Part shown: positions 3,319-60,169 of the stretch, one piece after another | Position numbering within the stretch: the stretch's first letter is position 1 | Layout: every line of letters begins with the position of its first letter | Source of the DNA: an uncultured candidatus Brocadiaceae bacterium | GTDB taxonomy: Bacteria > Planctomycetota > UBA11346 | Assembly: GCA_964612995.1 (NCBI GenBank) | Contig: CAZTGE010000001.1 | Coordinates: 15,985-79,984 of the forward strand | Direction: 5' to 3' | DNA length: 64,000 nucleotides | The notes under the pieces: generated by a model | What the model saw: the letters and a program-made list of their open reading frames with translations, nothing else | Databases searched by the model: none | What the model was told of the DNA's origin: nothing | Position numbers and translations under genes: made by a program

Positions 3319-3322
<4 letters not shown>
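2051..3322 (+). CDS. periplasmic substrate-binding-like protein (ABC_sub_bind / PF04392-like), probable sensor partner of the downstream histidine kinase
   Basis: N-terminal hydrophobic anchor (WLTLGLIAGLFLLAALGLIGL). Body has the pattern of the uncharacterised ABC periplasmic component family (DLVLALGTWAG, VVLLSASDPIAAGIV). Stop overlaps the GTG start of the kinase (GTGA). True start could be ATG 2078 or 2093. Confidence 0.6.
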
Positions 3323-5559
<2,237 letters not shown>

Positions 5560-10122: not shown

Positions 10123-10174
10123 CCCCCTGCGATCCGGGGACCACCGGCCGTCACGCTGCGGCTGCGTTCATGGC

Positions 10175-11035: not shown

Positions 11036-11042
11036 CGCGACC

Positions 11043-12590: not shown

Positions 12591-13555
12591 TGGACCTTCC
12601 CTTCGGTCAGATGCATGAACACGTCCTCGAGATTGTCGTCGCGGGTGGCGAAGTGGCAGACCGCGAGTTCGGCCGCCAGCAGGCGGCGCAGCAAGGCGGC
12701 GAGCTCGGCGTCGCCGCCGTGGTAGCGCAGCGCGATCTGCGTCTGATCGATACGGATTTCGCTGCACCCCGGCTGCTCGGCGAGGATGGCTTCGGCGCGC
12801 GGGTGCTCTTCGGCCAGGCGCAGCTCGAGCACGTGGCCGTCGCCGTCGCCGGCGGCTACCTGTTGCTGTTTCTTCTCGCGCAGCTGCTGCTTGATCTGCT
12901 TGACCTTGCCCTCGGCCACGATCCGCCCCTGCTCGATGATCGCGACTCCGTCGCACAGCGTCTCGAGCTCGGCGAGGATGTGCGAGGAGACGAACACCGC
13001 CCGGCCCTGCTGCGCAAGCACGCGCAACAGATCGCGGAACTCGATCCGCGCCCGGGGATCGAGCCCCGCGGCCGGTTCGTCGAGGATCAGCACCTGCGGG
13101 TCGTGGATGATGCAGCGCCCGAGGCACAGCCGCTGCTTCATGCCCTTCGACAGCCCGGTGACCGCCTTCTCGCGCAGGCCTTCGAGCTGGCAGAACTCCA
13201 TCACTTCGGCGACCGCCCGGCGGCGCGCGGCCGGAGCCAGACCGTGGGCGCGGGCGAAGAAATCGAGGTACTCGAACACCGTCATGTGGGGGTAGGCACC
13301 GTAATAATCGGGCATGTAGCCGATCATTCGCCGCACCGCGTCGGCGTCGTCCACCGTGCTGCGTCCGTTGACGCGGCAATCGCCAGCGCTGGGCAGGTCG
13401 AGGGTGGCGAGGATGCGCATGGTGGTCGACTTGCCGGCACCGTTGGGGCCGATGAAGCCGTAGATCTCGCCGGCCTCGATGCCGAAGCTGACGTCGTCGA
13501 CCGCGCGGATCGCGCCGAACCGGCGTTCGAGATGATCGACCTCGACCAGGCTCAC
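12587..13555 (-). CDS. ABC transporter ATP-binding protein
   Basis: Walker A GPNGAGKST, signature LSKGMKQRL, Walker B ILILDEPAAGLD, H-loop SSHIL. The start is placed at the GTG giving VSLVEVDHLERRFG (the typical N-terminus), which overlaps the stop of the upstream gene. Confidence 0.85.
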   Translation of the reverse strand: MSLVEVDHLERRFGAIRAVDDVSFGIEAGEIYGFIGPNGAGKSTTMRILATLDLPSAGDCRVNGRSTVDDADAVRRMIGYMPDYYGAYPHMTVFEYLDFFARAHGLAPAARRRAVAEVMEFCQLEGLREKAVTGLSKGMKQRLCLGRCIIHDPQVLILDEPAAGLDPRARIEFRDLLRVLAQQGRAVFVSSHILAELETLCDGVAIIEQGRIVAEGKVKQIKQQLREKKQQQVAAGDGDGHVLELRLAEEHPRAEAILAEQPGCSEIRIDQTQIALRYHGGDAELAALLRRLLAAELAVCHFATRDDNLEDVFMHLTEGKVQ

Positions 13556-15198: not shown

Positions 15199-16199
15199 AC
15201 CGCGAGCTCGGGGGTTTCGGCGATCAGGGTCCGGACCACGGCCGCCGCGTCGAGATCCTCGAGCCCGGCCTCGTAGCCGAGTACCAGGCGATGGGCCAGG
15301 GTCGGCACCGCCACCGCGCGTACGTCCTCGAAGCCGACCGCCGGCCGGCCAGCGAGCAGCGCCGCAGCCCGGGCGCAAGCGGCGAGGGTCAGCGCCGCGC
15401 GCGGGCTCGCGCCCCAGCGGACGTAACGGCGCACGCACTCCGGGCTGGTCTCGCGATCGGGACGGGTGGCGTCGACGAGGTGGGCGAGGTAGCGCCCCAC
15501 CGCCTCGGGCAGGGCGACCCGACGCACGGCCGCGAGCAGCTCGGCGAGTCCGGCGGCATCGGTGACCGGCTCGGGGACCGGCGCCACCCCGCTCTGACGC
15601 TGCAACACGATCTGCGCCAGCACCGAACGCTCGACGCCGGCGACCGTGACCTTCATCGCGAAACGGTCCAGCTGGGCTTCGGGCAGCGGATAGGTCCCAT
15701 CGAGCTCGATCGGGTTCTGGGTCGCGAGGACGAAGAAGGGCTCGGGCAGGCGATGGGTGGTCTCGAGCACGGTGACGCTGTGTTCCTGCATCGCCTCGAG
15801 CAGCGCCGACTGGGTCTTGGGGCTCGCGCGGTTGATCTCGTCGGCGAGCACGATCTGGGCGAAGACCGGCCCGGGGCGGAAGACCTGTTCGCGTCCGCCG
15901 TCGGGGGTCTGCTGCAACACATGGGTCCCGGTGATGTCGCCCGGCAGCAAGTCGGGGGTGAACTGGATGCGCTTGTAGTCGCAACCGCACAGGGACCCCA
16001 GAGCCTTGACCAGCTCGGTCTTGCCCAGGCCCGGCAGCCCTTCGAGCAACACGTGGCCGCCGGCGAGCATCCCGGTCAGGGTCAGGCGGGTCATCGCCTC
16101 CTGACCGAGGAGGACCTGATCCATCCCCGCGAGGATCGCGCGCGCACGCGTGCGGCAGGTCTCGACCTCGGTTTCACTGATCATCGGCATCTGCGTCAT
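15195..16199 (-). CDS. MoxR-family AAA+ ATPase
   Basis: Walker A GLPGLGKT, Walker B VLADEINRASPKTQSALLEAMQE, and the typical MoxR C-terminal helical domain. Start at MTQMPMISETE (ATG 16199) after the RBS-like GGATGA. Confidence 0.9.
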   Translation of the reverse strand: MTQMPMISETEVETCRTRARAILAGMDQVLLGQEAMTRLTLTGMLAGGHVLLEGLPGLGKTELVKALGSLCGCDYKRIQFTPDLLPGDITGTHVLQQTPDGGREQVFRPGPVFAQIVLADEINRASPKTQSALLEAMQEHSVTVLETTHRLPEPFFVLATQNPIELDGTYPLPEAQLDRFAMKVTVAGVERSVLAQIVLQRQSGVAPVPEPVTDAAGLAELLAAVRRVALPEAVGRYLAHLVDATRPDRETSPECVRRYVRWGASPRAALTLAACARAAALLAGRPAVGFEDVRAVAVPTLAHRLVLGYEAGLEDLDAAAVVRTLIAETPELAV

Positions 16200-17589
16200 C
16201 CTGTTCGCTGGCGAAGTAGCGTTGCACCGCGGCGCGGTGGCGTGGAGCGATCCGGGCCCGACGCGCATCGGCCGCTCCAGGCCCGATGTCACGCAGGCGC
16301 GCGCGTTGCAGCGCGCGGTTGGCGGCGTCGTCGAGCTCGGGCGCCCGCCGGCTCTCGGCCAGGGTCACCGAGCCGTCGGAGTTGATGCGGGCGCCGGCCG
16401 GCAGGCCTTCCAGCTCGCCGGGTTCGGTCTCCTGCTGCTGGTGGGTCAGTTCGAGCGCGGCGGCGCCGGGCCCGCGGGCGATGCCACCGCGACCCGGCTG
16501 CCCGCCAAGGCGCTGGAGCAGACGTGCGAAATCATCGCCGCGACCGAGGCCCGAGCGTTCGCCCGCAGCCGCGAGCGCGGCGCCGAGCCGTTGTGCCAGG
16601 GCCTGTTCGGCCGCCGGATCGCGCGCGCCTTGCCTCCCGCGATCGCCCTGGCCTGCGCCTGGCAGCAACCCGCGTTCGCGCAGGCGATCCAGCGCCTCGT
16701 CATCGAGCATTCCTTGCGCCGCCGCGGCGTCGAGCACGCGCGCGAGCTCGGCGTGGCCCGGCTGACCCTGTTGCGGCAGCAGACCCGGCGCCTGCCTGGC
16801 CAGCCTGGTCAGTGCCTGCGCCAGCGCCGCTGACTCGCGTTCGCGCGCAGCCGGATCGGCAGTGGCGGTGCGCCGTGCCTGCGCCAGAGCCTCAGCCAGC
16901 CGCTGCGTGCTGCGGCGCTGTTCGGCGCCGAGGCCGGCCGCGAGACGGTCCAGTCCTTCCCACACCGCCTGATCCATGCCACGCTCGTTCGCGGCCGTGG
17001 CGATCGACTCGAGCTGCTCCAACAGCTCCTGCTTGCGTTCCTGGCTCAGCACCCCCTCCTCGGCCATCTGCTCGAGCAGCTCCCGTGGCTGTGCGAGCAG
17101 TTGATCAACCCGCCCTGCGGACGAGCTGCCGGGATCGCGCTGGGGCAGCGCCACGGCGATCAGCACCGCGAGCACGGCGACCAGCACGCGGCCGCTACCG
17201 CTCCAGTCTAAGGGCGGCAGCCGGACCCGATCGAGACAAGGGCGCAGGCGTTGCAGCCAGCCCGGATCGCGCGCTGCGGGCTCCTCGTCGGCCAGGGCCA
17301 TCGCCAGACCGCGCGACTGCGCGAGTCGATCCAACCGCGCCGCCGTGATCGCATGCGGCTCCGGAGGACCGTACCACCGGCGTGACAGCAGAATCGGCGC
17401 CACCAGTCCGACCACGGGCAGCCACACCACAGTCGACGACCATCCGGGCAATGCGAGACGGATGCACACTTGCACCAGCGCGACCGCACCGAGCGACAAC
17501 GCCCAGGCCGTCAGCAACCGCCCGAGACAGCGCTGCAGCCGCTGGCGGCGATCGACCGCGCACATGAGTTGTTCGAGCCGCTGAGCCAT
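16174..17589 (-). CDS. membrane protein (three N-terminal TM helices plus a long Ala/Arg/Gln/Leu-rich predicted helical region); first gene of the operon
   Basis: ORF 16174-17589, with hydrophobic segments in the first 150 aa. Its 3' end overlaps the moxR start by 26 nt, consistent with translational coupling. No family recognised by eye. A DUF4129/DUF4350-type MoxR partner is a possibility only. Confidence 0.5.
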   Translation of the reverse strand: MAQRLEQLMCAVDRRQRLQRCLGRLLTAWALSLGAVALVQVCIRLALPGWSSTVVWLPVVGLVAPILLSRRWYGPPEPHAITAARLDRLAQSRGLAMALADEEPAARDPGWLQRLRPCLDRVRLPPLDWSGSGRVLVAVLAVLIAVALPQRDPGSSSAGRVDQLLAQPRELLEQMAEEGVLSQERKQELLEQLESIATAANERGMDQAVWEGLDRLAAGLGAEQRRSTQRLAEALAQARRTATADPAARERESAALAQALTRLARQAPGLLPQQGQPGHAELARVLDAAAAQGMLDDEALDRLRERGLLPGAGQGDRGRQGARDPAAEQALAQRLGAALAAAGERSGLGRGDDFARLLQRLGGQPGRGGIARGPGAAALELTHQQQETEPGELEGLPAGARINSDGSVTLAESRRAPELDDAANRALQRARLRDIGPGAADARRARIAPRHRAAVQRYFASEQDDADADDQ

Positions 17590-21637: not shown

Positions 21638-23860
21638 TCAGGGCAGGCGGTTGGCCCGGCGCAGAGCCCAATCGACGCACAGCAGCCCGACCACCAGCAG
21701 GAAGACCCAGAACCGGTCCCACAGCCGGATGAAATGGCGGCTCTGCTCGTGGTGGGAGAGATCGGGCAGGGCGGCGATCAGCCGCGCGGCCGCGTTGCCC
21801 CCCTCCGCTGCATCGGGCTCGGGCGGACCCCAGACCCCCGTGCGCCCGCCGCTGGCAGCGGAGAGCCGGGCCATGGCCTCGTGGTCGGCGCGCGGATCGC
21901 GCCGTTCGCGCTGCGAGGGCAGCACCACCAGCTCGCCAGCGCGTACGTCGGTCGCGGGCAGACCGTCGATCAATTCGAGGTGCCAGGATCCGGGTTGCCC
22001 CGGCGCCGGCACCTCGGCCGCGAAAGCCGGCTCGCCCGGCACCCGCAACAGCCGGTACTTGAGCCGGCGATCGCCAGGCCCGCGCAGCTGGACGGTGACC
22101 GCGTCGGGCAGGTCGGAGCGCTGCTCGCCCGGCGTCTGGGGGGCCACGGCAAGCTGGACGCGCTGCCCCGTCTGGGCGCGGTAGGGCGTGGCGGCGGCCC
22201 GCCAGGGGTGGGTGTCCAGACCCTTGCCCGCGCTGGCGTAGCGCAGCAGCGGGCTGTGGAAGCGGTTGAGGTAGTAGTCGCCGACGTTGCGCCGCCAGCG
22301 CCAGGTGTCGTCCACCGCGACCAGCACGCTGCGTCCGGCGCCGATGCGCCGCGCCACCACCACCGGTTCGCCGGAGCGGGCCTCCATCAGCACCTGGGCC
22401 GGCTGGCGCAGGGAGCCGATCGGCAGCAGACCACGCAGGCGCGGCAGCGCCTGCCAGGTCCCGCTGCCGGGATCGAACAATTTCAGACCCCTCGCTGCCG
22501 GAGCGCGACGGATCGCCCGGGCCTCGTTGGCGAGGTAACCGCGCTGGATCTCGGCGGTGGACGGCAGTTCGGCCGGAATCAGCTTGCTCAATGGGCCGTC
22601 GCGGAACCCGGCGATGGCGCCGCGTTCGCCGGGGATCCACACCAGGCCGAGCCCCTGCTGACGCACCGCGGTGGCGAGGTTGTTCATCTGGGTCTTGTCG
22701 AGCGTGTGCGCATCGATGTCGCCGATGATCACCGCATGGTAGTCCTCGAGCTGGACCGTGCCCAGCGGCAGCACGGTGCCGCCGTAGCGCTCGTCGCCCC
22801 AGCGCCGCCACCCGCCGTCGGCGAGATAGGAGTGGACGGTGACGGTCTGATCGCGGTCGAGCGCGTTGCGCAGATAGCGCATCTCGTAGCGTGGGTGGTG
22901 CGCGAGCATCAGCACCTGGAGGTTGCGCGGTCTGACCTCGACCGGGATCGACATGCGGTGAGACAACTCGCCAGCGGTGACCTCGGCGGTGAGCCCGGCT
23001 CGACCCTCGTCGTGGAGGGTGACATCGAGCTCGGGGCTGAAAGACTGCACCGTGACCGGGTCTGCAGCGGGATCGGGCGTGAGCGTGGTCTGTGCGAGGA
23101 CCTCGTCACCCTGGCGGATGCGCACGGTGATCGGCGCGTCGCCGAGGCTGCGCCCGCTGAAACGGACCTCGAAGGGGTTGGCCTCGCCCAGGGCGAGGTC
23201 GCGGTTGCCCTCGATCTCGTCGATGTGCAGCTCAGGGCTGACAGCCGTGCCGCCGACGCTCAGAGTCCACACGCCGTGCTCCGGGCCGCGGCCGCGAGCG
23301 AGCGAGCGCCCCACCGCGTCGAGCGCCGGACCGTCGTTGACGCGCCCGTCGCTGACCAGGATCACCAGCTCGTACTGGGGATCGCGCGCGACCTCGCCGA
23401 CCTGGCTGCCCAGCGGGCTGATCGGAGCGTCGGCCGCGAGCGCGTCGAGCTCATCATCGTCGACCCGGGCGAGCGCGTCGCCGAGCCGGTACCAGCTGAC
23501 CGTGTGCCCGTCGGTCACCGTGGCGAGCGCGGCGCGCAACGGAGCGAGCACGGCGAGCCGGTTGTCGAGGCCGGGAGCGTCGTCGCGGGCCATCGAGGCC
23601 GAGGTGTCGACCAGCACCGCGATGCGTCCGGGCTTGCTGGTGGTGATGGTCTCGCGCCAGCTCGGGTCGGCGATGCAGGCGACCAGCAACAGGATCGCGA
23701 GCACCCGACAGACCCGCGACAGCCAGCCGGCCAGCCCCGGCGGCCGCGGGCCGTAGCGACGCCAGGCCCACCAGCACAGCGCCGCGGCCCCGAGGACATA
23801 GAGGTAGAGCATCCACCCCTGGGCGTTGGCGAGCACGAATTCCAGATCGCTAGCGCCCAT
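21638..23860 (-). CDS. VWA-domain membrane protein (BatB-like), N- and C-terminal TM segments
   Basis: MIDAS motif IAVLVDTSASMARDD, N-terminal TM (LYLYVLGAAALCWWAW), C-terminal TM (FWVFLLVVGLLCV). Confidence 0.75.
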   Translation of the reverse strand: MGASDLEFVLANAQGWMLYLYVLGAAALCWWAWRRYGPRPPGLAGWLSRVCRVLAILLLVACIADPSWRETITTSKPGRIAVLVDTSASMARDDAPGLDNRLAVLAPLRAALATVTDGHTVSWYRLGDALARVDDDELDALAADAPISPLGSQVGEVARDPQYELVILVSDGRVNDGPALDAVGRSLARGRGPEHGVWTLSVGGTAVSPELHIDEIEGNRDLALGEANPFEVRFSGRSLGDAPITVRIRQGDEVLAQTTLTPDPAADPVTVQSFSPELDVTLHDEGRAGLTAEVTAGELSHRMSIPVEVRPRNLQVLMLAHHPRYEMRYLRNALDRDQTVTVHSYLADGGWRRWGDERYGGTVLPLGTVQLEDYHAVIIGDIDAHTLDKTQMNNLATAVRQQGLGLVWIPGERGAIAGFRDGPLSKLIPAELPSTAEIQRGYLANEARAIRRAPAARGLKLFDPGSGTWQALPRLRGLLPIGSLRQPAQVLMEARSGEPVVVARRIGAGRSVLVAVDDTWRWRRNVGDYYLNRFHSPLLRYASAGKGLDTHPWRAAATPYRAQTGQRVQLAVAPQTPGEQRSDLPDAVTVQLRGPGDRRLKYRLLRVPGEPAFAAEVPAPGQPGSWHLELIDGLPATDVRAGELVVLPSQRERRDPRADHEAMARLSAASGGRTGVWGPPEPDAAEGGNAAARLIAALPDLSHHEQSRHFIRLWDRFWVFLLVVGLLCVDWALRRANRLP

Positions 23861-25700
23861 AGGCCCTCCCGGCCCAGGCGGCGAACGCGCCCTCGCCCAA
23901 GGCGACCAGCAGCACCAGGATCAGCAGGGGCAGGCCCCAATCACGGCCCCGGGCCCGCGGCAGGACCGCAGCGATATCGATCGCCGAGGCCGGCGGACCG
24001 CCGGTCAGGCGGCTCTCTTCGGGATCGGCAAACACCAGCACCGGCTGGGCCTCGGCGGCATCGCTCGTCTGCGCCTGCCACAGGCCGGGAGCGACGAGCA
24101 ACGGCGCACCGAGCGGCCAGGACACACGCTCGCCCTCGCGCACCAGGGTCTGTTCGCGTTGGGCCCGCATGCCGGCCTGCAACAGGCGGGGGCGACCGGC
24201 GTCCGCGGCCAGCTGACGGACGCTACGCTGAACCCACAGGGTCGAGGCACCCAGGGCCCAGAAAGGGGAGAGGGATTCGAGCGCGACCAGCTCGCAGACC
24301 ACCCGCCCGCGGCCGGCCTGCAGCGCCACCACCAGAGGGGCCTCGCCGGCGCGCAGCAGCACCCGTGCGTGGCCGGGCAGGATGAACGCGCTCACGCCAT
24401 CTTTCTCGGATTGGCCGAGCCCGGCATGGCGCAGGTAGCTGTCGAGGATCGGCTCGCCGCTGTTGAAGACTCCGCCTGGCAGCAGCTGGTCGCGGTTGGG
24501 CTCAAGACCGGCGACCAATCCGGCGAGCTCGGAGTCGGCACGCAACATGTCGTAGCTGGCCCAGAGAATGCCGCCGGCCTCGACCCAGGCGACCAGTTCA
24601 TCGGCCGCCGCCGGGCGCTCGCGCAACAGGATCAGACCGTCGGATTCCAGCGGTCGGCTGGCCAGCTCGTCGGCGCGCAAGCGATCGACGTCGAGGTAGC
24701 GACCCGCCGCAGCCAGGGCGGTGCCAAGCATGCTGCGCCCGCTGCCGACCACCAGTGTCGGCAGCGCCTTGCGCACGCGCAGCGGCAGCTCGATGGCGTC
24801 GTCGTAGGTCAGGCCGTCGTCGTGCAGGCGTACGCGCACCCGGTGCTCGCCGACGCCCAGCGGCGGCAACGCCACCCGCGCCAGGCCATCGGTCACGCTG
24901 AGTTCCACCGGCAAGGGCGAGCCGTCGTCGACGCTCAGGCTGGCCCGGCGCGGCGTGCCGGCCACCCGCAGGGCGAGCTCGCTAACCGCTCCGGGGGCCG
25001 GTTCGGGCAGCTCGGCGATACCGGCGATGAAGGCGTTGTCGGCGGATTCGCCGACCGGCAGGCGGTTGACGCTGCGGACCCGCTCGCGCAGCACCGCTTC
25101 GAGCTGGGTGCCGTCGTCCTGACGGAAATCGGAGACCAGCAGGACATCGGTGTTGCGATCGCAGTGCGCGAGCACCGCTTCGGCCAGCTCGCCGGTCGCG
25201 GCACGATCCAGGCCACCGGGCACCGGAGTGGCATCGAGCTCCTCGAGCAGTCGCAGCGCACGACGCGGGTCAACGCTCTGACCGCCGGTAAGAGCGTTGA
25301 CCCGTCGGTCGACCGTCAACACCACCACCGCGTCGGTATCGATGCTGGCCTCGCTCATCGCGCGGCGGAAGGCCGCCAGCGCGCCGGTGCCATCACGCAG
25401 CGCGCCCATGCTCGCGGTGGTGTCGATCACCAGCAGCAGGCGACCACCCGAACCGAAACCGGCGAGGCTCGGACGGGCCAGGGCCAGGGCGAGCAGGGCG
25501 ACGATCAGACAGCGCAGCAGCAACAGCAGCAGATTGGTCAGGCGATACCGGCGCTGCGCAACCTCGAGCGCAGCCAGCAGCCAGGTCATCGCGGCCCAGG
25601 GCCGGTCCTTGGGTCGCTGGCGCAGCAGCAGGTGGATGGCGATGGGCGCGGCGATGGCCAGGCCACCCCACAGGAGCCCCATGTTGACGAAACTGAACAC
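23850..25700 (-). CDS. BatA-like protein (BatA N-terminal domain plus VWA domain)
   Basis: N-terminus MFSFVNMGLLWGGLAIAAPIAIHLLLRQR (BatA_N). MIDAS motif LLLVIDTTASMGA. C-terminal TM LPLLILVLLVALG. Overlaps the downstream VWA gene by 11 nt. Confidence 0.75.
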   Translation of the reverse strand: MFSFVNMGLLWGGLAIAAPIAIHLLLRQRPKDRPWAAMTWLLAALEVAQRRYRLTNLLLLLLRCLIVALLALALARPSLAGFGSGGRLLLVIDTTASMGALRDGTGALAAFRRAMSEASIDTDAVVVLTVDRRVNALTGGQSVDPRRALRLLEELDATPVPGGLDRAATGELAEAVLAHCDRNTDVLLVSDFRQDDGTQLEAVLRERVRSVNRLPVGESADNAFIAGIAELPEPAPGAVSELALRVAGTPRRASLSVDDGSPLPVELSVTDGLARVALPPLGVGEHRVRVRLHDDGLTYDDAIELPLRVRKALPTLVVGSGRSMLGTALAAAGRYLDVDRLRADELASRPLESDGLILLRERPAAADELVAWVEAGGILWASYDMLRADSELAGLVAGLEPNRDQLLPGGVFNSGEPILDSYLRHAGLGQSEKDGVSAFILPGHARVLLRAGEAPLVVALQAGRGRVVCELVALESLSPFWALGASTLWVQRSVRQLAADAGRPRLLQAGMRAQREQTLVREGERVSWPLGAPLLVAPGLWQAQTSDAAEAQPVLVFADPEESRLTGGPPASAIDIAAVLPRARGRDWGLPLLILVLLVALGEGAFAAWAGRAYGR

Positions 25701-25853: not shown

Positions 25854-28754
25854 ATGAGCGAGTCGACCACCGACATCGCACAAGCCAGTCGCAAACCCAT
25901 GCATATCGGTTCGTACCGGGTGATCGGCAAGATCGGCCAGGGCGGCATGGGCACGGTCTACAAGGCGATCCAGACCAGCATCGACCGCATCGTCGCGCTC
26001 AAGGTGCTGGCGCCGCATCTGGCCCGGGACGCCCAGTTCGTCGACCGCTTCCTGCGTGAGGCGCGCAGCGCGGCCCGACTCTCGCACCGCAACCTGGTCT
26101 GTGTCTACGACTGCGGCGAACAGGTCCTGCCGGCCAGGCGTGCCGACGGCACGGATGGAGAACGCACTGTCTACTACTTCAGCATGGAATACGTCGAAGG
26201 CTGTACGCTCGGCGAATGGGTCCAACGCCATGGGCTGCCAGACGAACACGACGGCCTCGGGCTGATGCGCAAACTCGCCGTGGTCCTCGGCTACGCCCAC
26301 GAGCGCAACCTGGTCCATCGCGACGTCAAACCCGACAACATCCTCATCGACGCCGAGGGCGAACCACGGCTGTGCGACCTCGGGCTGGCGAAGCCGATCG
26401 ACGCCCTGGTCGCGGCCGATGACGACGCGGCCACGAACCGTCATGACCCCGCGCGCATCGACGCCGGCCTGACCCAGGTCGGCACCACCCTGGGCACGCC
26501 GCGCTACATGGCCCCGGAACAGGTCACGCGCGCCCAGATCGACGGGCGGACCGACCTCTATGCGCTCGCCGCCACCTTCTTCCACGTGTTCACCGGTCGC
26601 CCGCTGTTCGTCGGCGACGACGGCCAGAGCGTGGGACGGATGCACCTGGACCGACCGCCCACGCCCATCCGCCAGCTGCGCAAGGAATTCTCGCGCGAGA
26701 CCGAGGCTCTGCTGCTGGAAATGCTGGCCAAGCGACCGGACCGGCGACCGGCCGACGCCGCAACGGTGGCCGCCCGGATCGACCGCATCCGCGCAGGCGC
26801 AGCGCGCGCTCCGGGCCGGGGTCAGCCGCGCCCCGGTGCGCGTGGGCCCGGGCGCGCGCGCCGCGAGCGCTCGCGCGGCGCCACGCCGGTGATCATCACG
26901 ATCGTCGCGGTGCTGGCCATCGGCCTGGGGGCGATCGCGCTGCTCGACAACGATGCCGCGCCACGCGCCACGAAGCCATCACCGGCGGAAGCCGCACCGG
27001 GGCCGGAGACGGAGACGGGGCCGGAGGCGCCCACCGACCAGGCCGCGGCGCTCGAACGGCTGACCGACAGCTACCGGTCGGTGCGCCGCGAACAGCCCGC
27101 CGACTTCGCCACCGCCACGCAGCGGCTCGCACGTCTCGCGGCACTCGGCGCGGCAGGGCGCGAGCGCGCGCACTCACTGCGCGCCGAGCTGGAAGCGGAT
27201 TGGGATGCCCACGCCCAGGCGCGCTGGCAGGAGCTCGAGGCCGAAGCCGCGACGCTGGTCGCCGCGGATCGCTACGACGCCGCGCTCGCGGTGCTCGCCG
27301 GAATGCCACGCAGCCTGGCCGAACGCATTCCGCAGACCATCGCCGCACGCCAGACGGCGATCCGCCAGGCCGGCGAAACGGCGTTGCTCGCCGCGCTCGA
27401 CCGGTGCGAGCACGCCCTCGCCGACGGCGATCCCACGACGGCCGCGCAGGCACTGCAGTCCAGCCGCTCGATCGCCTGCGCCGATGCACGCACCCAGCAC
27501 CAGGATCGCCTCACGACCCTGGACCGGCGCGTGAGCGAGGCCCGGAGACGCGGCGGTGATACGCCGGGCCAACCGGGCGGGGTACGGGAGACGCGACCGG
27601 AGGCGTGGACGCCAGTCGCCACACGCCTCGTCGCCGCGCTGCTGGGCCAGGGCAAGAACGACTACCGGAGCGTTCTCGACGACGAGGCCCGCCAAGCCGA
27701 ATCGGCGATCGCAGACCTGCTGACGGCAGCCGAAGCGGTGGCCGCCGCCGACACCCGGCTGCGCGAACACCTCGCCGAACGCAGCCGTTCCCAGGCCACC
27801 GGTCCGGTATCCATCGCCACCACCACCGCCGGCGAGCGCACGGGCGAATTCGCCGACGCCGGAGCCGCAGGGATCCAGCTGTCGATCCGCGTCGCCGCCG
27901 GCGAGGCCTCGGGCCACGGCGTGCTGCGGGTGGCGTGGGAGGAACTCACCCCCGCGGAGCTCGCCACGCGACTGACCGGCTGGCAGGCACGAGAGCCGGC
28001 GGCAGCGGTGGCGACGGCGGCGCTGCAGCTGCGCTGCGGTGCCATCGACGCGGCCGCGCGCTCGGCGCAGGCCTGCGCCGAGCACCCGCTCGGTGCAGCG
28101 CTGGCACAGCAGATCGCGGCGGCCGAAGCCGCCGCTCTCGGGGCGCAGGCGCAAGGCGCCTGGCAAGCGCTGCTCGAGCGCGTGCCACGCGAACCGACGC
28201 CGGCCGAGGCCACCGCGCTGCTGAGCGAACTCGCGCGCTGGCGCGCAGAACACGGCCAGAGCCCCTTCGCCGAAGCCGAAGCCAGCGCGATCGTGGCGGT
28301 CGATCAGCGCCTGCGCGACGCCCTGACCGCCAATCTGGTCGCCAACGGCGATTTCGAGGACCGTGATTCGCAGAACTGGCGCCTGGAGACCATGCGCGGC
28401 AGCGAGGTCTCCGTCACCCGCCAGGCCCAAGCCGGCGAATTCGCGCTGCGGGCGACCACCCCCAATCGCGCCCGCGCCCGGCAGCGGATCTACCAGACCG
28501 TGGCCGTGGCGCCCGACCGCCCCTGCAGCTTCTCCGCCTGGGTCTGCTGTCACACCGGCGAGACCACGGTCACCGTGCGCCTCGACGGCCCCGGCGTCCA
28601 CTGGAGCGCACGCACGAGCAAACGGGATTGGAAGCATCTCACGACCAGCTTCACCCCCACCAGCGACAAGGTCCTGCTGGTCTTCGAAGGCACCGCCCGC
28701 GGCATCGCCGATTTCACCATCGACTCGGTCGCGATCCACCCCGACGCGCCCTGA
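25854..28754 (+). CDS. transmembrane Ser/Thr protein kinase with an extracytoplasmic Ala-rich helical region and a C-terminal CBM4_9-like carbohydrate-binding domain
   Basis: Kinase motifs: GxGxxG (GKIGQGGMGTVYKA), VALK, HRDVKPDNILI, DLGLAK, APE. Single TM (PVIITIVAVLAIGLGAIALL) after the kinase domain. The last about 130 aa (NLVANGDFEDRDSQNWRLE...FTIDSVAIHP) match the CBM_4_9 pattern. Confidence 0.85.
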   Translation: MSESTTDIAQASRKPMHIGSYRVIGKIGQGGMGTVYKAIQTSIDRIVALKVLAPHLARDAQFVDRFLREARSAARLSHRNLVCVYDCGEQVLPARRADGTDGERTVYYFSMEYVEGCTLGEWVQRHGLPDEHDGLGLMRKLAVVLGYAHERNLVHRDVKPDNILIDAEGEPRLCDLGLAKPIDALVAADDDAATNRHDPARIDAGLTQVGTTLGTPRYMAPEQVTRAQIDGRTDLYALAATFFHVFTGRPLFVGDDGQSVGRMHLDRPPTPIRQLRKEFSRETEALLLEMLAKRPDRRPADAATVAARIDRIRAGAARAPGRGQPRPGARGPGRARRERSRGATPVIITIVAVLAIGLGAIALLDNDAAPRATKPSPAEAAPGPETETGPEAPTDQAAALERLTDSYRSVRREQPADFATATQRLARLAALGAAGRERAHSLRAELEADWDAHAQARWQELEAEAATLVAADRYDAALAVLAGMPRSLAERIPQTIAARQTAIRQAGETALLAALDRCEHALADGDPTTAAQALQSSRSIACADARTQHQDRLTTLDRRVSEARRRGGDTPGQPGGVRETRPEAWTPVATRLVAALLGQGKNDYRSVLDDEARQAESAIADLLTAAEAVAAADTRLREHLAERSRSQATGPVSIATTTAGERTGEFADAGAAGIQLSIRVAAGEASGHGVLRVAWEELTPAELATRLTGWQAREPAAAVATAALQLRCGAIDAAARSAQACAEHPLGAALAQQIAAAEAAALGAQAQGAWQALLERVPREPTPAEATALLSELARWRAEHGQSPFAEAEASAIVAVDQRLRDALTANLVANGDFEDRDSQNWRLETMRGSEVSVTRQAQAGEFALRATTPNRARARQRIYQTVAVAPDRPCSFSAWVCCHTGETTVTVRLDGPGVHWSARTSKRDWKHLTTSFTPTSDKVLLVFEGTARGIADFTIDSVAIHPDAP

Positions 28755-31353: not shown

Positions 31354-31743
31354 CTACAGCGGTTCGTCCTGATCGAGCTCGCAGAGCTCGCAGCACGGCG
31401 GGCGCCGGTCCGGGCGCACGATCGCCAACCACCAGATCAGGCCGGCCGCCGGCAACCCCGCAACCAGGGCCCAGGGAGTGATCACCAGCACCGCGGCCGC
31501 GTTGCCGGCGAGCAGCACCAGCGCCAGCGTGAGGCGCAGGAACTGGCGCCGCAGGCGATGCCGGCGGAGATCCTGCTCGAGTACCGGCCACAGGATGCGG
31601 AACAGGGTGCCGGTTCCCGGGGTGGTGTCGGATTCGCTGCAGCGGTCCGACTCGCTCTCGCCGAACAGGTTGTCCCACTGCCGCTCGCGTTCATAGCGGC
31701 GTGGGCGCCCGGAGAAATACATGCGATCGGATGCCGAACTCAT
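31354..31743 (-). CDS. small hypothetical membrane protein
   Basis: ATG 31743 overlaps the ugpC stop (ATGA). One or two TM helices (LTLALVLLAGNAAAVLVITPWALVAGLPAAGLIWWLAIV). Confidence 0.4.
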   Translation of the reverse strand: MSSASDRMYFSGRPRRYERERQWDNLFGESESDRCSESDTTPGTGTLFRILWPVLEQDLRRHRLRRQFLRLTLALVLLAGNAAAVLVITPWALVAGLPAAGLIWWLAIVRPDRRPPCCELCELDQDEPL

Positions 31744-32921
31744 GACACCTCCGCCGGAACCGGAGCCGTGGCCAGCGAGCACCCGCTGTCATCGAACAGG
31801 TGCAGTTGGGCGGTGTCCACGCCGAGCTCGACCGGCTCGTCGCGGCTGACGCCGAAACGTCCGGGCAGCCGGGTCACCAAGCGCAGATCCTCGCCGGTGT
31901 GCGTATCCTCGCCCTCGAGGTCGGCGACGTGGATCCGCTGCACCGGCACGGGGGCGTAGACCATCTGCTCGTGCCCCAGCGGCTCGACGCCATCTGGAAC
32001 GATACGCAGACGTTGCTCAGCGGGCACCTGATCCGGCGGCACGAAGGCCTCCGGGCGCAGACCGCAGGATACGGTGCCGTCGCAGCGCTGGTCGAGGTCG
32101 GGGAAACGCGCGCGTGCCGATGCGGCGATGGCCACCCGCTGATCGCCGATGATCACGGCGGGGCCCCCGGCGTCGGCGACCAGCCTGGTGCGGAACAGGT
32201 TCATGCTCGGAGAGCCGATGAACGAGGCGACGAAGGTGTTCACCGGCGCGTCGTAGAGCTCCTGCGGCGGAGCCACCTGTTGCAGCAGGCCCTGGCGCAT
32301 CACCGCGACCCGGTCGCCCATGGTCATCGCCTCGATCTGGTCGTGGGTGACGTAGATGGTGGTGGTGTGCGTACGGCGCTGGAGCTGACTGATCTCAGCG
32401 CGCATGCTCACTCGCAGCTTGGCATCGAGATTGGACAGCGGCTCATCCATCAGAAAGGCGACGGGATCGCGGACCAGGGCCCGGCCCATGGCCACGCGTT
32501 GGCGCTGGCCGCCGGAAAGGGCCTTGGGCTTGCGTTCGAGCAGATCGCCGAGCTCGAGCATCTGCGCGACCTTCTCGACCTGCGCCGCGATCGCGGGCCG
32601 CTTCAGCTTGCGCATCTGCAGCGGGAAGGCGAGGTTCTTGCGCACGCTCATGTGGGGATAGAGCGCGTAGTTCTGGAACACCATCGAGACGTTGCGCTGC
32701 TGCGGCTGCAGATCGTTGACCAGCACATCGTCGATGAACAGCTCGCCGCGGGTGATCTCCTCGAGCCCGGCACACATCCGCATCGCCGTGGTCTTGCCAC
32801 AGCCGGATGGGCCGACGATGACCATGAACTCGCCGTCGGCGATCTGCAGGTCGAGATCGCGGACGGCGTGGACCCCGCCGGGATAGACCTTGTTCACGTT
32901 CCTGTATTCTATTGTCGCCAT
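31740..32921 (-). CDS. ugpC: sugar / sn-glycerol-3-phosphate ABC transporter ATP-binding protein (MalK/UgpC family)
   Basis: Walker A GPSGCGKTT, signature LSGGQRQRVAMGRAL, Walker B FLMDEPLSNLD, and the C-terminal regulatory (TOBE-like) domain. Confidence 0.9.
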   Translation of the reverse strand: MATIEYRNVNKVYPGGVHAVRDLDLQIADGEFMVIVGPSGCGKTTAMRMCAGLEEITRGELFIDDVLVNDLQPQQRNVSMVFQNYALYPHMSVRKNLAFPLQMRKLKRPAIAAQVEKVAQMLELGDLLERKPKALSGGQRQRVAMGRALVRDPVAFLMDEPLSNLDAKLRVSMRAEISQLQRRTHTTTIYVTHDQIEAMTMGDRVAVMRQGLLQQVAPPQELYDAPVNTFVASFIGSPSMNLFRTRLVADAGGPAVIIGDQRVAIAASARARFPDLDQRCDGTVSCGLRPEAFVPPDQVPAEQRLRIVPDGVEPLGHEQMVYAPVPVQRIHVADLEGEDTHTGEDLRLVTRLPGRFGVSRDEPVELGVDTAQLHLFDDSGCSLATAPVPAEVS

Positions 32922-32928
32922 CGTCGAT

Positions 32929-34191
32929 TCACCCCTTCACCGCCCCTACGGCGATAGCATTGACGATATAGCGCTGGAGCATGATGAACAGGACCACCAC
33001 AGGGATTACCATCAGCGTGGCCGCGGCGTTGATCCAGTGCCAGAACGATTCGTAGCCCGATTTGAACATGAATACCGCCAACGCCAGCGGCTGGAAGGCG
33101 GGGCGCGACTGCGCGGTGAGCAGCGGGACGAGGAAGTTGTTCCACGCCCCGAGAAAGGCCAGCAAGCCGACGGTCATCACGATCGGCCGGGCCATGGGCA
33201 GAGCGATGGCGAAGAAGGTACGGAAGGGCCCGGCGCCGTCGACAAAAGCCGCCTCCTCGACCTCCTTGGGCAGGGTGAGGAAGAAGCCCGCCATCAGGAA
33301 CGCGTTGCCGATCGAGATGCCGGCCATCCACAGCACCATGCCCCACAGGCTCTCCAGCAGGCCCGCGGCCATGATGAAGCGGAACACCGGGATGATCACC
33401 GCTTCGGTCGGTGCGACCGCGCCGAAGAGCAGCAACGAGAGGATGAGCATCTTGCCGGGGAAGCGCATCCGCGCGAGGGCGAAGCCGAGCATCGAGCTCA
33501 TCAACACCACGATGATCACCACCGCCGAGGTCACGAGGAAGCTAGTCGCGGTGTAGAGCCAGAAGCGCATGTCGCGCCAGACCACGGCGTAGTTCTCGAG
33601 CTGGAACCGGGTACCCGCGAGCAGATCGCGCGCCGCGAGGTCCGCGAGCGCGGTCCGCGCCTGCTCGTGTTTCGCTGCCTCGTCGGCACTGTCGGGGAAC
33701 AGGGTCTCGGCTGCGTCGGCGGGGGTGATGCGGTAGGGGACGAAGGTGTTGTAGATGCAACGACGCTTGATGTCGTCCTTGCGCAGCAACTGCAGGATCT
33801 CGCGCTGGACCGGGCTCAGGCTCGGGTCCGCGGCCTCGCGCTGCGAGCGCTCCGCCGCGATGGCCAGGGACGCGGCCTTGGCCCGCTCGGTCTGCTCCAG
33901 GTCGGCGATGTCGATCGGTTTGCCGCCGGGGCGGAAGGGAGCGAACAGGCTCTCGCGCCGCTGCGGGTGCAGGCCGTACTTGACCGTGGGCACCGCGGTG
34001 TGCTTCTGGGCGGTGCTCTCCTGCGCCGTCTTGGTGCTGGTGCCCATCATCCAGATGAAGGGATAGATGTTTAGCAGGGCGAGGCCCAGCAGCAGCACGT
34101 GCACTGGCAGGCTCCAGCCGCGCCGGCGGAACCAGTTGCCGAAGCGGTTGCCGGCTTCAAGACGGTCGGGGCGGCTCTCACTGCTCATCGG
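32929..34191 (-). CDS. carbohydrate ABC transporter permease (MalG/UgpE-like) with a long extracytoplasmic loop after TM1
   Basis: EAA-loop motif EEAAFVDGAGPFRTFFAIALPMARP and six TM segments. Start at MSSESRPDRLEAG (ATG 34191) inside the longer track ORF. Confidence 0.8.
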   Translation of the reverse strand, partial: PMSSESRPDRLEAGNRFGNWFRRRGWSLPVHVLLLGLALLNIYPFIWMMGTSTKTAQESTAQKHTAVPTVKYGLHPQRRESLFAPFRPGGKPIDIADLEQTERAKAASLAIAAERSQREAADPSLSPVQREILQLLRKDDIKRRCIYNTFVPYRITPADAAETLFPDSADEAAKHEQARTALADLAARDLLAGTRFQLENYAVVWRDMRFWLYTATSFLVTSAVVIIVVLMSSMLGFALARMRFPGKMLILSLLLFGAVAPTEAVIIPVFRFIMAAGLLESLWGMVLWMAGISIGNAFLMAGFFLTLPKEVEEAAFVDGAGPFRTFFAIALPMARPIVMTVGLLAFLGAWNNFLVPLLTAQSRPAFQPLALAVFMFKSGYESFWHWINAAATLMVIPVVVLFIMLQRYIVNAIAVGAVKG

Positions 34192-34766
34192 CCAGCTCCT
34201 GCAGCGGCGTAGCGGCCGCGGATCCGGCGGCCGACGTAGACCATGTTGATCACGATGAAGCCGGCGAGCAGCAGCGCGTAGAGCACGCTCAGGGTCGCGG
34301 CATAGCCGACATCCGGCAGCGCGGTCTCGTTCCACTCGAAGCCGTTCTTGAACACGTAGGTCGAGACGATCTCGGTCCCGCTGTCACCCTTGGTCAGGAT
34401 GTAGACGTTGCCGAAGTGGCGCGCCGCGCCGACGAGCGAGTTGAACAGGATGATCAGCAGGATCGGTGCCAGCTGCGGCAGGGTGATGCGGGTGAAGCGC
34501 TGCCAGGACCCGGCGCCGTCGATGCGTGCCGCCTCGTAGAGATCGCGGGGGATCGACTGCAGCCCCGCGAGGCAGAGGATGGTGTTGTAGGGCAGGCCGT
34601 GCCAGACGCCGACCCCCATCAGGGTGTAGAGCGCGACGTCGGGATCGTTGAGCCAGTTGATCGGCGCGGTGGTCTCACGCAGCCCCAGCATCGCGAGCAG
34701 GTCGTAGACGCCGATCCATTCCAATGCCTGGTTGAGCCCGCTGCCCTCGCCGCCGAGATTTTTTTT
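34185..34766 (-). pseudogene. MalF/UgpA-like permease, C-terminal part (TM3-TM6 with EAA loop). It is separated from its N-terminal part by the adapter-derived insert, so the gene as assembled is disrupted.
   Basis: EAA motif YEAARIDGAGSWQRFTRITLPQLAP. Same reading frame as ORF 34791-37169. The first about 10 codons of the track ORF (MVAVSLKKNL) are translated from the T9 and adapter sequence, not native DNA. Confidence 0.7.
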
Positions 34767-34796
34767 TAATGATACGGCGACCACCGAGATCTACAC
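34759..34796. other. non-native insert: T9 followed by the exact 29-nt Illumina P5 adapter AATGATACGGCGACCACCGAGATCTACAC (34768-34796)
   Basis: Exact match to the P5 flow-cell adapter. It introduces an in-frame TAG (from ATCTACAC) that splits the permease gene. Confidence 0.9.
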
Positions 34797-37067
34797 CACC
34801 ATCGGGATGAAGAACAGGGTGCGGTAGAAACCGATGCCGCGCAGGCCGATGTTCAACAGGCAGCCCATCCCCAGACCGACGGCGACCTCGGCTACGGCGA
34901 CGATCGTCATGTACTGCAGGGTGTTGGGCACCACCTCGCCCCAGAAGGTGTCATCGGCGAAGGCGTGCCGGTACTGGTCCAGCCCGACGAACGACAAGGC
35001 GGTCTGCCCGGTACCCGTGTGGAGCGAGAGATAGAGCTGATAGAGCGCCGGATAGAGCACGAACACGAACAGGGCCAGAACCGCGGGCGCGACGAAGACG
35101 TAGGCATGCCAGTTGCGGCGCGCCGCGCCCGCAAGCCCACGCATCCCACCAGGGGAGCGGCCGACGAAGCGGCGCCAGAGCAGGTAGATCGCGACGGTGG
35201 CCAGGATCAGGCCCGTGAGCGAGAGCAGCAACGGCCAGGCGGGGGGGCGGCTCATGCCCTGGGCCCCACGCAGTTCACCCGGCAAAGCCGCGCGCAAGCT
35301 GGTGATGCGTTCTTCGCCGGCCGGATCACCGGCGTTGATTTGACGGATGTAGAACGACCCAGCGCGCATCGGATCCCAGTCGGGGAACACGAAGCGCTGT
35401 GGATCGCGCGCACCTTGTTCCACCAGCTCGGCCAGATCGGCATTGACCGCCGCCGTGTATTCTTCCAGGCCCTGCGCGAGCCGGCGCAGCAGCCGGTCGA
35501 AGGTCGCCACGTCCTCGCGGGCAGCGGCGTCCTCACTGAAGGTGAGGAACACCTCGCGCATCTGGGTGCGGTGATCCGCGAGATCGCGGATCCGCCGGTG
35601 CGATGGCGGCGCGGGCCAGACCTGGGTCGTCTCGACGTAGTTCCAGGCCTGGATCTGGAAGGGCAGCAGCTGCTCGCGGACCGCCACCCACTGCGGGTCG
35701 TCGCTCTCGAACACCAGATAACCCAGGGTGCGGTTGTCCGGTAGATTGTAGTGCTCGAGCAGCATGGGGATCTGCTTCTGGGGGAAGCGCCAGTGGCTGT
35801 AGAGCCAGTCCCAGGCCGAATCGGGGTACTCGCTGCCGGTGGTGATGCAGGTGATCCGGCTGTTGCCGCCGCCATCGCGGATGTGAGCGCCGCGGTCGAC
35901 CGTGAAACCGAGCATCTGCTCGAGTTCCGCCGCTTCGCCCGCATCGGTGTAGGGCACGGGGATCGCGGCCGAGCCGATCTGCTCCTTGGCCGCCGGGTTC
36001 TTCTGCGCCGCGATCATCGCCGCGTGCCAGCCGTCGATCAACATCGCGGCACGGCCCTGTGACAACAAGGCCCGGCTCTCCTCGTAGTGGCGCTGGGCGG
36101 TCCCCGGGCACAGGCTGCCATCCTGGGCGATGAGCATCAGCAGCTTGAAGGCGCCGCGCATCGCCGCGCCGTGATAGTCGTACGCGCCACGGGCGAAATC
36201 GAAGCCGGTGCTCCCGGCAGTGGCGGCGAGCGGATCGACCGCCCGGGCGAAGAGGTTGGGGTCCTGCCCCTGCATGATCAGGCCGTAGGGCCGGTCCTGG
36301 CTGTCGGCGCCATAGGTCTCGATACCCCAGCGGGTGATCAGCGCGGCGAAACGGCGCATCTCGGCCCAGGTCCGCGGCGGCCGGGCGCGACCCTGGGCGT
36401 CGACCAGCTCGGCGTAGGCGCCGCCGGCGGCTGCCGCCTGCTCGAACAACCGGGCGTTGTAGGTCAGCGCCTTCGCCTTGCCGGGCGGATTGAAGCCGAT
36501 GATCTTGCCGTGCATCGCCAGCAGCCGCACCGCCTCCTCGGCGTGCTCGCCGCGCTCGACCCAGGCGCGGATGCGCGGGTCGTCGGGGTTGGCCTGGAAT
36601 CGGACGATGGCCTGTTCACCGCCATTGAGCCCGAGGATGAAGTCGGGCAGGCCGAGACGCTCGCGGATGCGGTTCTCGCGCGCAACCAGGTCGTCGAGCG
36701 GCCGGATCTGCCCCGCCGCGACCGCATCGGCCAGCTGACTCGGCCAGTAGTCGACGATGTCGGGCGGATCCCCGGCGAGGAAGGAGACGAAGATCACGTC
36801 ATCGCGCGAGGCCGACGAGGCGAAATGGAGGTTGGTCTGCACCGGCTCGATGTCCGGATCGCGCGCGGCCTCGGCGGCGAGGTCGTGGGTGAACCGCCGC
36901 GCGTGCATCAGGTCTTCCTGCGGCGAGCCGCTACTCGACCATTGCGTGACCACGCGCCCGCGAGCTTTGTCCGCGGTGGTCAGCACGCGGGTGATCCCAC
37001 CCCAGAAACTGATCATGGTCGCGATGCCGAGGCCGATGCACAGGAAGGCCCAGGCGCGAGTGGACAT
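34794..37067 (-). CDS. extracellular solute-binding protein (about 600 aa) continuing in frame, with no stop, into the N-terminal part of a MalF-like permease (TM1-TM2, RRNWHAYVFVAPAVLALFVFVLYP)
   Basis: ATG 37067 with GGAG 7 nt upstream. N-terminal anchor MSTRAWAFLCIGLGIATMISFW. Large soluble domain. Then a TM and the typical MalF N-terminus. The reading frame runs uninterrupted until the TAG contributed by the adapter. Confidence 0.55.
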
Positions 37068-37208
37068 ATTGGAGGGCTCCGTGCTGCGGGGAAACGTGCG
37101 GGGAAACGGGGACGCCAGCTTGGTACGCCCAGCGGCGGCCTTCGCTGAGGACAAAGACCGCGTGCGCACGCCAGTGGATCAGCCAGCGCGGCCGTTCGGG
37201 CGACGGCC

Positions 37209-54111: not shown

Positions 54112-54183
54112 CGGCAACGTATTACTCCTATTCGATCCACTCGCCGCTTGCTCGCGCCCCGCCCGGACCACATTGGTGATGCA

Positions 54184-60166: not shown

Positions 60167-60169
60167 GGC

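Follow-up and report, generated by a model that had tools for sequence, protein, structure and literature searches.

A receptor-type Hanks kinase of Planctomycetota with a conserved helical stalk and a carbohydrate-binding-module-like head

Planctomycetota have many transmembrane Ser/Thr kinases and, to our knowledge, the ligand is known for none of them. One such gene, MFW5858482.1, from a Planctomycetota MAG (25854..28754, + strand; coordinates refer to the window, i.e., the whole 64-kb stretch of DNA that was analysed), raises the question of what these receptors may sense and by which part. The earlier note on this locus had described a transmembrane Hanks-type kinase ending in a CBM4/9-like module and had suggested that the combination would be a distinct route of glycan sensing. 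Taken alone, the gene has a correct and unsurprising domain architecture: the public precomputed Pfam matches for MFW5858482.1 already give Pkinase and CBM_4_9, and a literature search found no mention of the protein accessions or of 'Pkinase' paired with 'CBM_4_9'. We describe here the 966-aa product as a single-pass transmembrane kinase whose periplasmic part consists of a stalk and a CBM-like head, and the family of receptors to which it belongs.

The kinase domain and the membrane topology

The open reading frame starts with an ATG that has a GAGGA 8–12 nt upstream, and the NCBI gene call is identical to it. The GC content by codon position (0.75/0.56/0.86) is uniform along the reading frame and is that of genuine genes in this 70% GC window. 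The strings NLVANGDFEDRDSQNWRLE and FTIDSVAIHP were both found in the translated protein; scans for a promoter and a terminator of the gene gave no match. The kinase domain (aa 21–300, 25914..26753, + strand) matched Pkinase (PF00069) with an E value of 2.5e-44 and 152.1 bits, against a gathering cut-off of 31.7, and carries an intact catalytic set: G28xGxxG (GQGGMG), VALK50, H155RDVKPDN, D175LG and A220PE. Every relative checked had DLG or DMG at the DFG position. Between DLG and APE lies a long activation loop of 42 aa (40 aa in the closest homologue, P0001), and an insertion precedes beta5. By profile and motifs the protein is a Hanks-type Ser/Thr kinase, as had been claimed, with phosphotransfer predicted. 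The NF033483 model (PknB/Stk1) also matched (E 1.1e-74), with a score of 252.5 against a cut-off of 450 and only over model positions 8–272 of 563, and the Pfam and NCBIfam profiles detected no PASTA, LysM or SPOR domain in the protein. Beside CBM_4_9, Pkinase is the only recognised domain.

The kinase is followed by an Arg/Gly/Pro-rich juxtamembrane linker (aa 301–344, 26754..26885, + strand; R 32, G 24 and P 16% over aa 320–344) that is basic and probably disordered, and by the single transmembrane helix, PVIITIVAVLAIGLGAIALL (aa 345–364, 26886..26945, + strand). This is the sole hydrophobic segment, with a Kyte-Doolittle value of 2.95, all others being at or below 1.6. There are six Lys or Arg among the 15 residues on its N-terminal side and two on its C-terminal side, and this positive-inside bias, together with the presence of only one helix, places the kinase in the cytoplasm and the C-terminal part outside it. 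A published survey of Planctomycetota Ser/Thr kinases uniformly predicts the same arrangement, a kinase domain in the cytoplasm and accessory domains in the periplasm (PMC11032199). The sensor had been described as extracytoplasmic, for extracellular or cell-wall glycan. Its extracytoplasmic location holds; however, the cell plan of Planctomycetes is Gram-negative, and polysaccharide is taken up into their periplasm (PMC5394234), so that in this diderm host the sensor domain faces the periplasm and not the cell exterior. A Pro/Ala/Glu-rich periplasmic linker (aa 365–393, 26946..27032, + strand; pLDDT <50) leads into the rest of the ectodomain.

A conserved stalk shared by a family of receptors

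The region after the linker had been read as Ala/Glu/Arg-rich helical repeats. The helicity is borne out (aa 365–820 contain 25% Ala, 10% Arg, 9% Leu and 9% Glu and are predicted helical at high confidence), and the stalk opens with two homologous repeats of about 60 aa each. The reading as mere repeats does not hold: the family alignment and the AlphaFold2 model delimit a conserved, folded helical module of about 430 aa (aa 394–824, 27033..28325, + strand), with an embedded four-stranded beta insert (aa 651–694, 27804..27935, + strand) conserved as G..V.L.T..G...G......GV.L ... W..L, and not a low-complexity spacer. No Pfam or NCBIfam model matches aa 394–824. The motifs of the stalk family present in the 966-aa protein are NP..F, YD.AL, I.Y, G..V.L.T..G...G, W..L, HPLA and F...HG.T.A. 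Since 54 matches reached at least 30 bits and the best among 20 shuffled versions was 7.2 bits, the similarity is not compositional.

On this basis we defined a family of stalk-bearing receptors with lectin-type heads, in which the module of about 430 aa lies between the transmembrane helix and a C-terminal head. A search of 1.84 billion proteins with the ectodomain gave 77 representatives at E <=1e-3, the best with 29% identity over the whole ectodomain; the phmmer match to P0001 (E 6.7e-27) covers ectodomain residues 36–599. At least 50 distant homologues have the stalk in common, and the kinase-TM-stalk-head architecture recurs at full length in independent assemblies. Some stalk homologues lack the kinase and carry zinc-ribbon, PEGA or lipoprotein N-termini. 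An anti-sigma-like N-terminus was suspected for one of the representatives, P0007, and was dropped, as Pfam gave no support. Along the ectodomains of the family, the stalk is the most conserved element.

An HMM from an alignment that includes the 966-aa protein and the proteins of four homologue loci (A1) matched these and nothing else in 7021 ORFs from 87 loci. Scanning of genome contigs gave 80 loci that matched the kinase domain only, dominated by the motif YMAPEQVT, with a stalk or head in none of the 80, and a metagenome scan with the alignment of the 966-aa protein and P0001 gave just two loci, in which the match was confined to the CBM. Three queries to a word index (ectodomain, C-terminal domain, family alignment) returned zero matches, which is no evidence of absence because two of them filled the limit of 8000 candidates, presumably with low-complexity words, and because the 90% cluster representative of MFW5858482.1 is a partial kinase of only 328 aa.

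The CBM-like head and its exchange among relatives

The C-terminal beta-sandwich (aa 826–964, 28329..28745, + strand) was recognised by Pfam, AlphaFold2, Foldseek and the family profile. CBM_4_9 (PF02018) matched aa 826–946 above its cut-off of 25.9 (whole protein, 32.7 bits; isolated C-terminus, 37.2 bits), and the ectodomain model (mean pLDDT 85.6) shows the head as a CBM jelly-roll, in agreement with the earlier note. Neither of the results that the note had named as refuting it, a C-terminal domain outside all CBM and jelly-roll families or one lying in the cytoplasm, was obtained. The head follows the stalk rigidly in the model, with a pTM of 0.48 that leaves their relative geometry uncertain. 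Foldseek gave target-normalised TM-scores (TMt) of 0.7–0.8 to CBM61 and CBM16. The family profile matched the solved CBM22, CBM61 and CBM16 among PDB sequences (E 3e-14 to 6e-10), and phmmer with the single C-terminal domain gave only chance matches there (E about 1). By profile and predicted structure, then, the head is homologous to CBM4/16/22/61 modules; as it does not form part of a carbohydrate-active enzyme, we call it CBM-like and not a CBM in the strict sense of CAZy.

The residues NG.FE, W, G, W and D of the head are conserved across the family (the last as DD in most homologues, DS in the 966-aa protein). A search of the head for carbohydrate-contacting residues identified none. The ligand contacts of CBM16-1, which we take to be W23, Q124 and W128 in chain numbering (reportedly from Bae et al. 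2008; the numbering was checked against the chain and the PDB title 'Q121E'), are not conserved and align to E, V and T in the head. Residues that determine specificity vary among CBM families.

The head is also the part that changes. Among 34 kinase-bearing representatives the C-terminal domain was CBM_4_9 in 12, Laminin_G_3 in seven, and Lectin_C, FGE-sulfatase and Kelch in three each; 3keto-disac_hyd was also among the alternative heads. The pairing of kinase and CBM is therefore not unique to the 966-aa protein. That one stalk occurs with different lectin-type heads marks the distal domain, as judged from these comparisons, as the exchangeable part that putatively sets specificity, and makes the stalk the presumed common transducer.

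A possible mechanism and its alternatives

We favour, with moderate confidence, an inner-membrane receptor-type Hanks kinase that senses periplasmic glycan by means of its stalk and CBM-like head, the glycan binding being putative and probably the task of the head. The head would bind a glycan chain in the periplasm, for example an oligo- or polysaccharide taken up by the cell, or a glycan of the envelope. Its occupancy may alter the arrangement or the oligomeric state of the stalk, and this change would pass through the single transmembrane helix and make it easier for the long activation loop to be trans-autophosphorylated, after which the kinase could phosphorylate cytoplasmic targets encoded elsewhere. 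A broader proposal, which we advance only tentatively, is that the stalk is an undescribed periplasmic signalling module of Planctomycetota and their relatives, coupling interchangeable lectin heads to cytoplasmic outputs, in most cases a Hanks kinase and in others a zinc-ribbon protein.

The same architecture might instead recognise a ligand other than a carbohydrate, such as a peptide, a lipid or a protein of the periplasm or envelope, the CBM fold being a mere scaffold, as it is in MAM domains, in the ligand-binding domains of Eph receptors and in Cry/Vip toxins. A weak Pfam match to MAM (E 5.6e-4), the lack of the CBM16 ligand residues and the Kelch propellers of some relatives, a fold commoner in protein than in glycan binding, would fit such a ligand. 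Yet the top matches by sequence profile and by structure are all proven glycan-binding modules and most of the alternative heads are lectin-type (Laminin_G_3, Lectin_C, 3keto-disac_hyd), and we regard a non-carbohydrate ligand as rather unlikely. We give still less credit to a head that only anchors the protein to peptidoglycan or another envelope polysaccharide while the signal is received by the stalk through partners, or in the cytoplasm. CBMs are classically targeting modules, and a stalk so conserved, and found also without the kinase, could have a function of its own; but the swapping of heads among homologous receptors is what would be expected of a specificity-determining sensor, and the peptidoglycan-binding families searched for (PASTA, LysM, SPOR) are missing from the protein. 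That the gene is a mis-assembled or decaying fusion, or encodes a pseudokinase, and plays no part in signalling is very improbable: the genome is a MAG and the activation loop and the insertion before beta5 are unusual, but the catalytic motifs are complete, the codon-position GC shows no break, independent assemblies contain the full-length architecture and P0001 has a similarly long loop.

Relation to known systems

Plant L-type and C-type lectin receptor kinases and the CrRLK1L/FERONIA group combine a kinase and one transmembrane helix with a ConA-like, C-type-lectin or malectin ectodomain. They belong to the same kinase superfamily and the bacterial family shows the same types of head, although the plant receptors are an independent eukaryotic invention without the stalk module, and their ligands include both peptides and wall glycans. 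We read the 966-aa protein as a lectin-type receptor kinase of uncharacterised design; if the reading of the stalk is correct, the family would be a bacterial counterpart of these plant receptors. With the PASTA kinases PknB, PrkC and StkP it shares the Hanks kinase, the disordered juxtamembrane region, the single transmembrane helix and, by analogy, extracytoplasmic glycan (there, muropeptide) binding that would control the kinase. It differs in lacking PASTA repeats, in having a helical stalk and a beta-sandwich as sensor, and in its diderm planctomycete host. Compared with the type-B beta-sandwich CBMs of CAZy (families 4, 16, 22 and 61), the head stands without an enzyme and has not kept the CBM16-1 ligand residues, which leaves binding putative.

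Until now the regulation of polysaccharide foraging has been ascribed to SusR-type regulators, to hybrid two-component systems and to anti-sigma/ECF pairs. Should dietary or envelope glycans prove to be what the heads bind, Hanks-type signalling would be tied to foraging as well, and polysaccharide foragers would read glycans imported into the periplasm by Ser/Thr phosphorylation and not by two-component or anti-sigma systems. One conserved stalk with exchangeable lectin-type heads offers a tractable way into the ligands of Planctomycetota kinases: the heads are small and confidently modelled, hence suited to glycan-array screening, and stalk-head chimeras could probe how a ligand signal is transmitted in a single-pass bacterial kinase.

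The closest precedents in the phylum are the Ser/Thr kinases catalogued, uncharacterised, in the survey (Pkinase-TM-Laminin_G_3, Pkinase-Lectin_C and Pkinase-TM-DUF1080), which share the topology and a periplasmic beta-sandwich of sugar-binding type; relatives of the 966-aa protein bear exactly these lectin-type heads, whereas the survey does not describe a shared helical stalk, nor is CBM_4_9 among the supplement entries searched (PMC11032199). In Clostridium thermocellum, RsgI anti-sigma factors have a CBM or a glycoside-hydrolase-like domain as sensor; they are also single-pass membrane transducers whose extracytoplasmic CBM reports polysaccharide to the cytoplasm, but they act by regulated proteolysis that frees sigma-I and not by phosphorylation, use other CBM families and occur in a monoderm (PMC12203970). 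They are functional analogues of the kinase and not homologues.

Genomic neighbourhood

The 64-kb window holds no gene of the CAZyme, FHA, PP2C or sigma-factor kind that could be a partner, and no gene neighbour is conserved across the eight homologue loci, so that ligand and output cannot be read from gene context. Of the divergent BatA/VWA pair that had been reported, the first gene (23850..25700, - strand) does have a BatA N-terminal double-TM domain (63.3 bits), while VWA_2 matched it at 22.2 bits, short of the cut-off of 27, and the next gene (21638-23860, - strand) has no domain recognisable by profile search. The BatA adjacency was absent at all eight homologue loci examined, and the gene is therefore probably not part of the kinase system. 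Neither the BatA/VWA neighbour nor a CUT1-type sugar ABC transporter recurs beside the eight homologues examined, and a functional link of the kinase gene to either was rejected for that reason. The transporter lies about 3 kb downstream of the kinase gene.

A helical stalk with exchangeable heads

The main interest of the gene at 25854-28754 (+), encoding a receptor kinase of 966 aa, lies less in the single gene than in its family, in which one stalk carries exchangeable heads. An exhaustive phmmer search with the ectodomain (the periplasmic part past the TM helix) against 1.84 billion representatives, at a cut-off of E <= 1e-3, gave 77 proteins. The top match, P0001 (947 aa; E 6.7e-27), aligned with the ectodomain from one end to the other at 29% identity. 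By domain-wise searches, a helical region of 430 aa (aa 394-824 here), which we refer to as the stalk, is common to about 60 of the 77, and in 33 of these it is preceded by a kinase at the N-terminus and an equivalently placed TM helix. The earlier note had seen helical repeats here; the helices stand, but they form a conserved module of ca. 430 aa. At the level of sequence the similarity is not compositional, since 54 of the 77 matches reached at least 30 bits, against a maximum of 7.2 bits over 20 shuffles, and an HMM of the module built from the aligned family ectodomains found the window protein (L081) and the four homologue loci that had contributed proteins to that alignment, with no other match among the 7021 ORFs of the fetched loci, 80 kinase-only loci included.

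The heads were assigned with Pfam in 34 kinase-bearing members, i.e., the window protein and 33 homologues. We found CBM_4_9 (12 members), Laminin_G_3 (seven), Lectin_C, FGE-sulfatase and Kelch propeller (three each) and 3keto-disac_hyd (one). CBM_4_9 mostly follows the stalk directly, in some cases with a second head behind it. This pattern of a constant stalk and a variable distal lectin-type domain is the main argument for considering the head as the putative ligand-specificity element and the stalk as the transducer. The N-termini preceding the stalk also include a CxxC...CxxC zinc-ribbon, PEGA domains, a lipoprotein signal and a Metallophos domain. In the homologues P0017, P0028, P0068 and P0072 the short cytoplasmic zinc-ribbon (IYCSxCGKMIPPGG...CPKCY) replaces the kinase before the periplasmic stalk, a possible second output type of the module. 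Several stalk proteins, including P0002, P0003 and P0019 (loci L084 and L089), end in C-type-lectin or FGE-sulfatase folds, the usual targets of diversity-generating retroelements (compare PMC10907252); inspection of two loci of such members revealed no gene for a reverse transcriptase.

Planctomycetal STKs with lectin-type periplasmic domains have been catalogued already (PMC11032199), and Pkinase plus CBM_4_9 is among the public precomputed Pfam hits for the window protein. Our literature search found no mention of this combination and no description of the stalk.

The CBM-like head

The CBM4_9-like C-terminal domain (aa 826-964) proposed in the earlier note was confirmed by a CBM_4_9 match of 37.2 bits for the isolated domain and 32.7 bits for the whole protein (gathering score 25.9), in agreement with target-normalised Foldseek TM-scores of 0.7-0.8; for a previous model built from one sequence the ranking was identical, at lower Z. 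A nine-member family profile matched the solved CBM22, porphyran-CBM, CBM61 and CBM16 sequences (E 3.4e-14 to 6e-10), and the relationship, as judged from these matches, is therefore one of homology, beyond fold resemblance. The residues conserved in the family (an NG.FE strand, two Trp, a Gly and a C-terminal D, the latter DD in most homologues and DS here) are probably structural, because they are common to CBMs of many specificities. The ligand residues of CBM16-1, which we take to be chain W23, Q124 and W128 (as reported by Bae et al. 2008, and consistent with the chain numbering and the PDB title 'Q121E'), align to E, V and T, so that no specificity can be inferred for this predicted carbohydrate-binding domain. 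Its ligand might also be something other than a carbohydrate, or the head might act as an anchor. As no enzyme is attached, it is CBM-like and falls outside the strict CAZy definition of a CBM.

The ectodomain was modelled with AlphaFold2 from a 10-sequence alignment (mean pLDDT 85.6, pTM 0.48). In ectodomain numbering, a disordered linker of 29 aa at the start is followed by helices (32-283), a four-stranded beta insert (287-330), further helices (336-458) and a beta-sandwich (479-600). The top Foldseek E-values for this model (m694f804d3c51), 1.7e-9 to 1e-8, were to full-length Cry1 protoxins (9h99, 8w7n, 4w8j), in matches spanning ca. 260 columns with low TM-score. The C-terminal extension of Cry1 protoxins consists of helical bundles alternating with CBM-like beta-rolls, and the likeness may come down to the beta-roll that both have.

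Gene, kinase domain and topology

The window has a G+C of ca. 70%, and the kinase ORF, the longest of its region, has codon-position GC of 0.75/0.56/0.86, the pattern of real genes in the window, and GAGGA 8-12 nt 5' of the ATG. Overlapping antisense ORFs showed the mirror pattern and are high-G+C artefacts. Both sequence strings quoted in the earlier note are found in the translation. A decayed gene is a very unlikely alternative: the Pkinase domain (aa 21-300, E 2.5e-44) has the full set of Hanks motifs, with GQGGMG at 28, VALK to K50, HRDVKPDN at 155, DLG at 175 and APE at 220. At 42 aa its activation loop is exceptionally long; that of P0001, the closest relative, has 40 aa, and those of most relatives have 24-28.

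The sole hydrophobic segment (aa 345-364, Kyte-Doolittle 2.95) follows an Arg/Gly/Pro-rich linker, with six K/R among the 15 residues on its N-terminal side and two on its C-terminal side. This single segment and its charge bias place the kinase domain inside and the C-terminus outside in our prediction, as had been proposed from the sequence, and the same topology has been reported for transmembrane STKs throughout Planctomycetota (PMC11032199).

An identical 966-aa protein is called on GCA_048617035.1 (contig JBMCID010000002.1) and deposited as MFW5858482.1, 'MAG: protein kinase domain-containing protein [Planctomycetota bacterium]'. Its 90% cluster representative, MFW5750984.1, is a 328-aa partial kinase; ectodomain searches of cluster representatives thus cannot recover MFW5858482.1 itself, and a 'no homologues' outcome from them should be read accordingly.

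Proposed mode of action

The analysis established the architecture, topology, intact catalytic motifs, head homology and fold, and stalk conservation. In the proposed mechanism, a glycan in the periplasm might bind the head, the stalk would then be rearranged or change its oligomeric state, and the activation loop would next be trans-autophosphorylated. In this the protein may resemble PASTA kinases and plant lectin receptor kinases, with a possible functional likeness to the CBM-bearing RsgI anti-sigma factors (PMC12203970). It is not itself a PASTA kinase: its NF033483 score was 252, for the kinase part only, against a cut-off of 450. The cell plan of planctomycetes is Gram-negative, and polysaccharide is taken up into their periplasm (PMC5394234), a plausible ligand source.

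Genomic context

The earlier note had placed a divergent BatA/VWA pair next to the kinase gene. The neighbour does have a BatA N-terminal domain, but its VWA_2 match is below threshold and no domain was recognised in the gene beyond. Further downstream, the kinase strand encodes a two-TM protein of 214 aa, a DUF924 protein and another protein of 367 aa. Eight homologue loci had no neighbour in common with the window or one another, except two copies of one locus, and no FHA, PP2C or sigma-factor gene was found within the 64-kb window; the kinase gene thus has the character of an orphan signalling gene, with neither ligand nor substrate indicated by context. Another orphan sensor of the window is a hybrid histidine kinase (PAS, HisKA, HATPase_c, receiver; 2977-5559, +), after an ABC substrate-binding-like protein (2051-3322).

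A more complete cluster of the Bat/MoxR type is found at 5606-16292 (-), apart from the BatA gene beside the kinase, so that the window holds two BatA-type loci. It comprises a MoxR AAA_3 ATPase (15195-16292), DUF58 (10175-11035), BatA (8335-10122) and a double-VWA protein of 910 aa (5606-8338). Some 3 kb downstream of the kinase is a CUT1-type sugar ABC transporter (31740-37169, -) made up of a permease, a solute-binding protein of 792 aa and a MalK-like ATPase that carries an OB domain; this transporter was not seen beside homologues of the kinase.

An FtsW/RodA family protein (41403-42548, +) and a protein weakly matching the SPOR domain (54148-55383, +; 20.0 bits against a cut-off of 21) would, if real, indicate a peptidoglycan wall and hence a periplasmic kinase ectodomain. 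The anaerobic ribonucleotide reductase NrdD and its adjoining radical-SAM activase (59396-62257, -) suggest that this Planctomycetota MAG comes from an anaerobe or a facultative organism.
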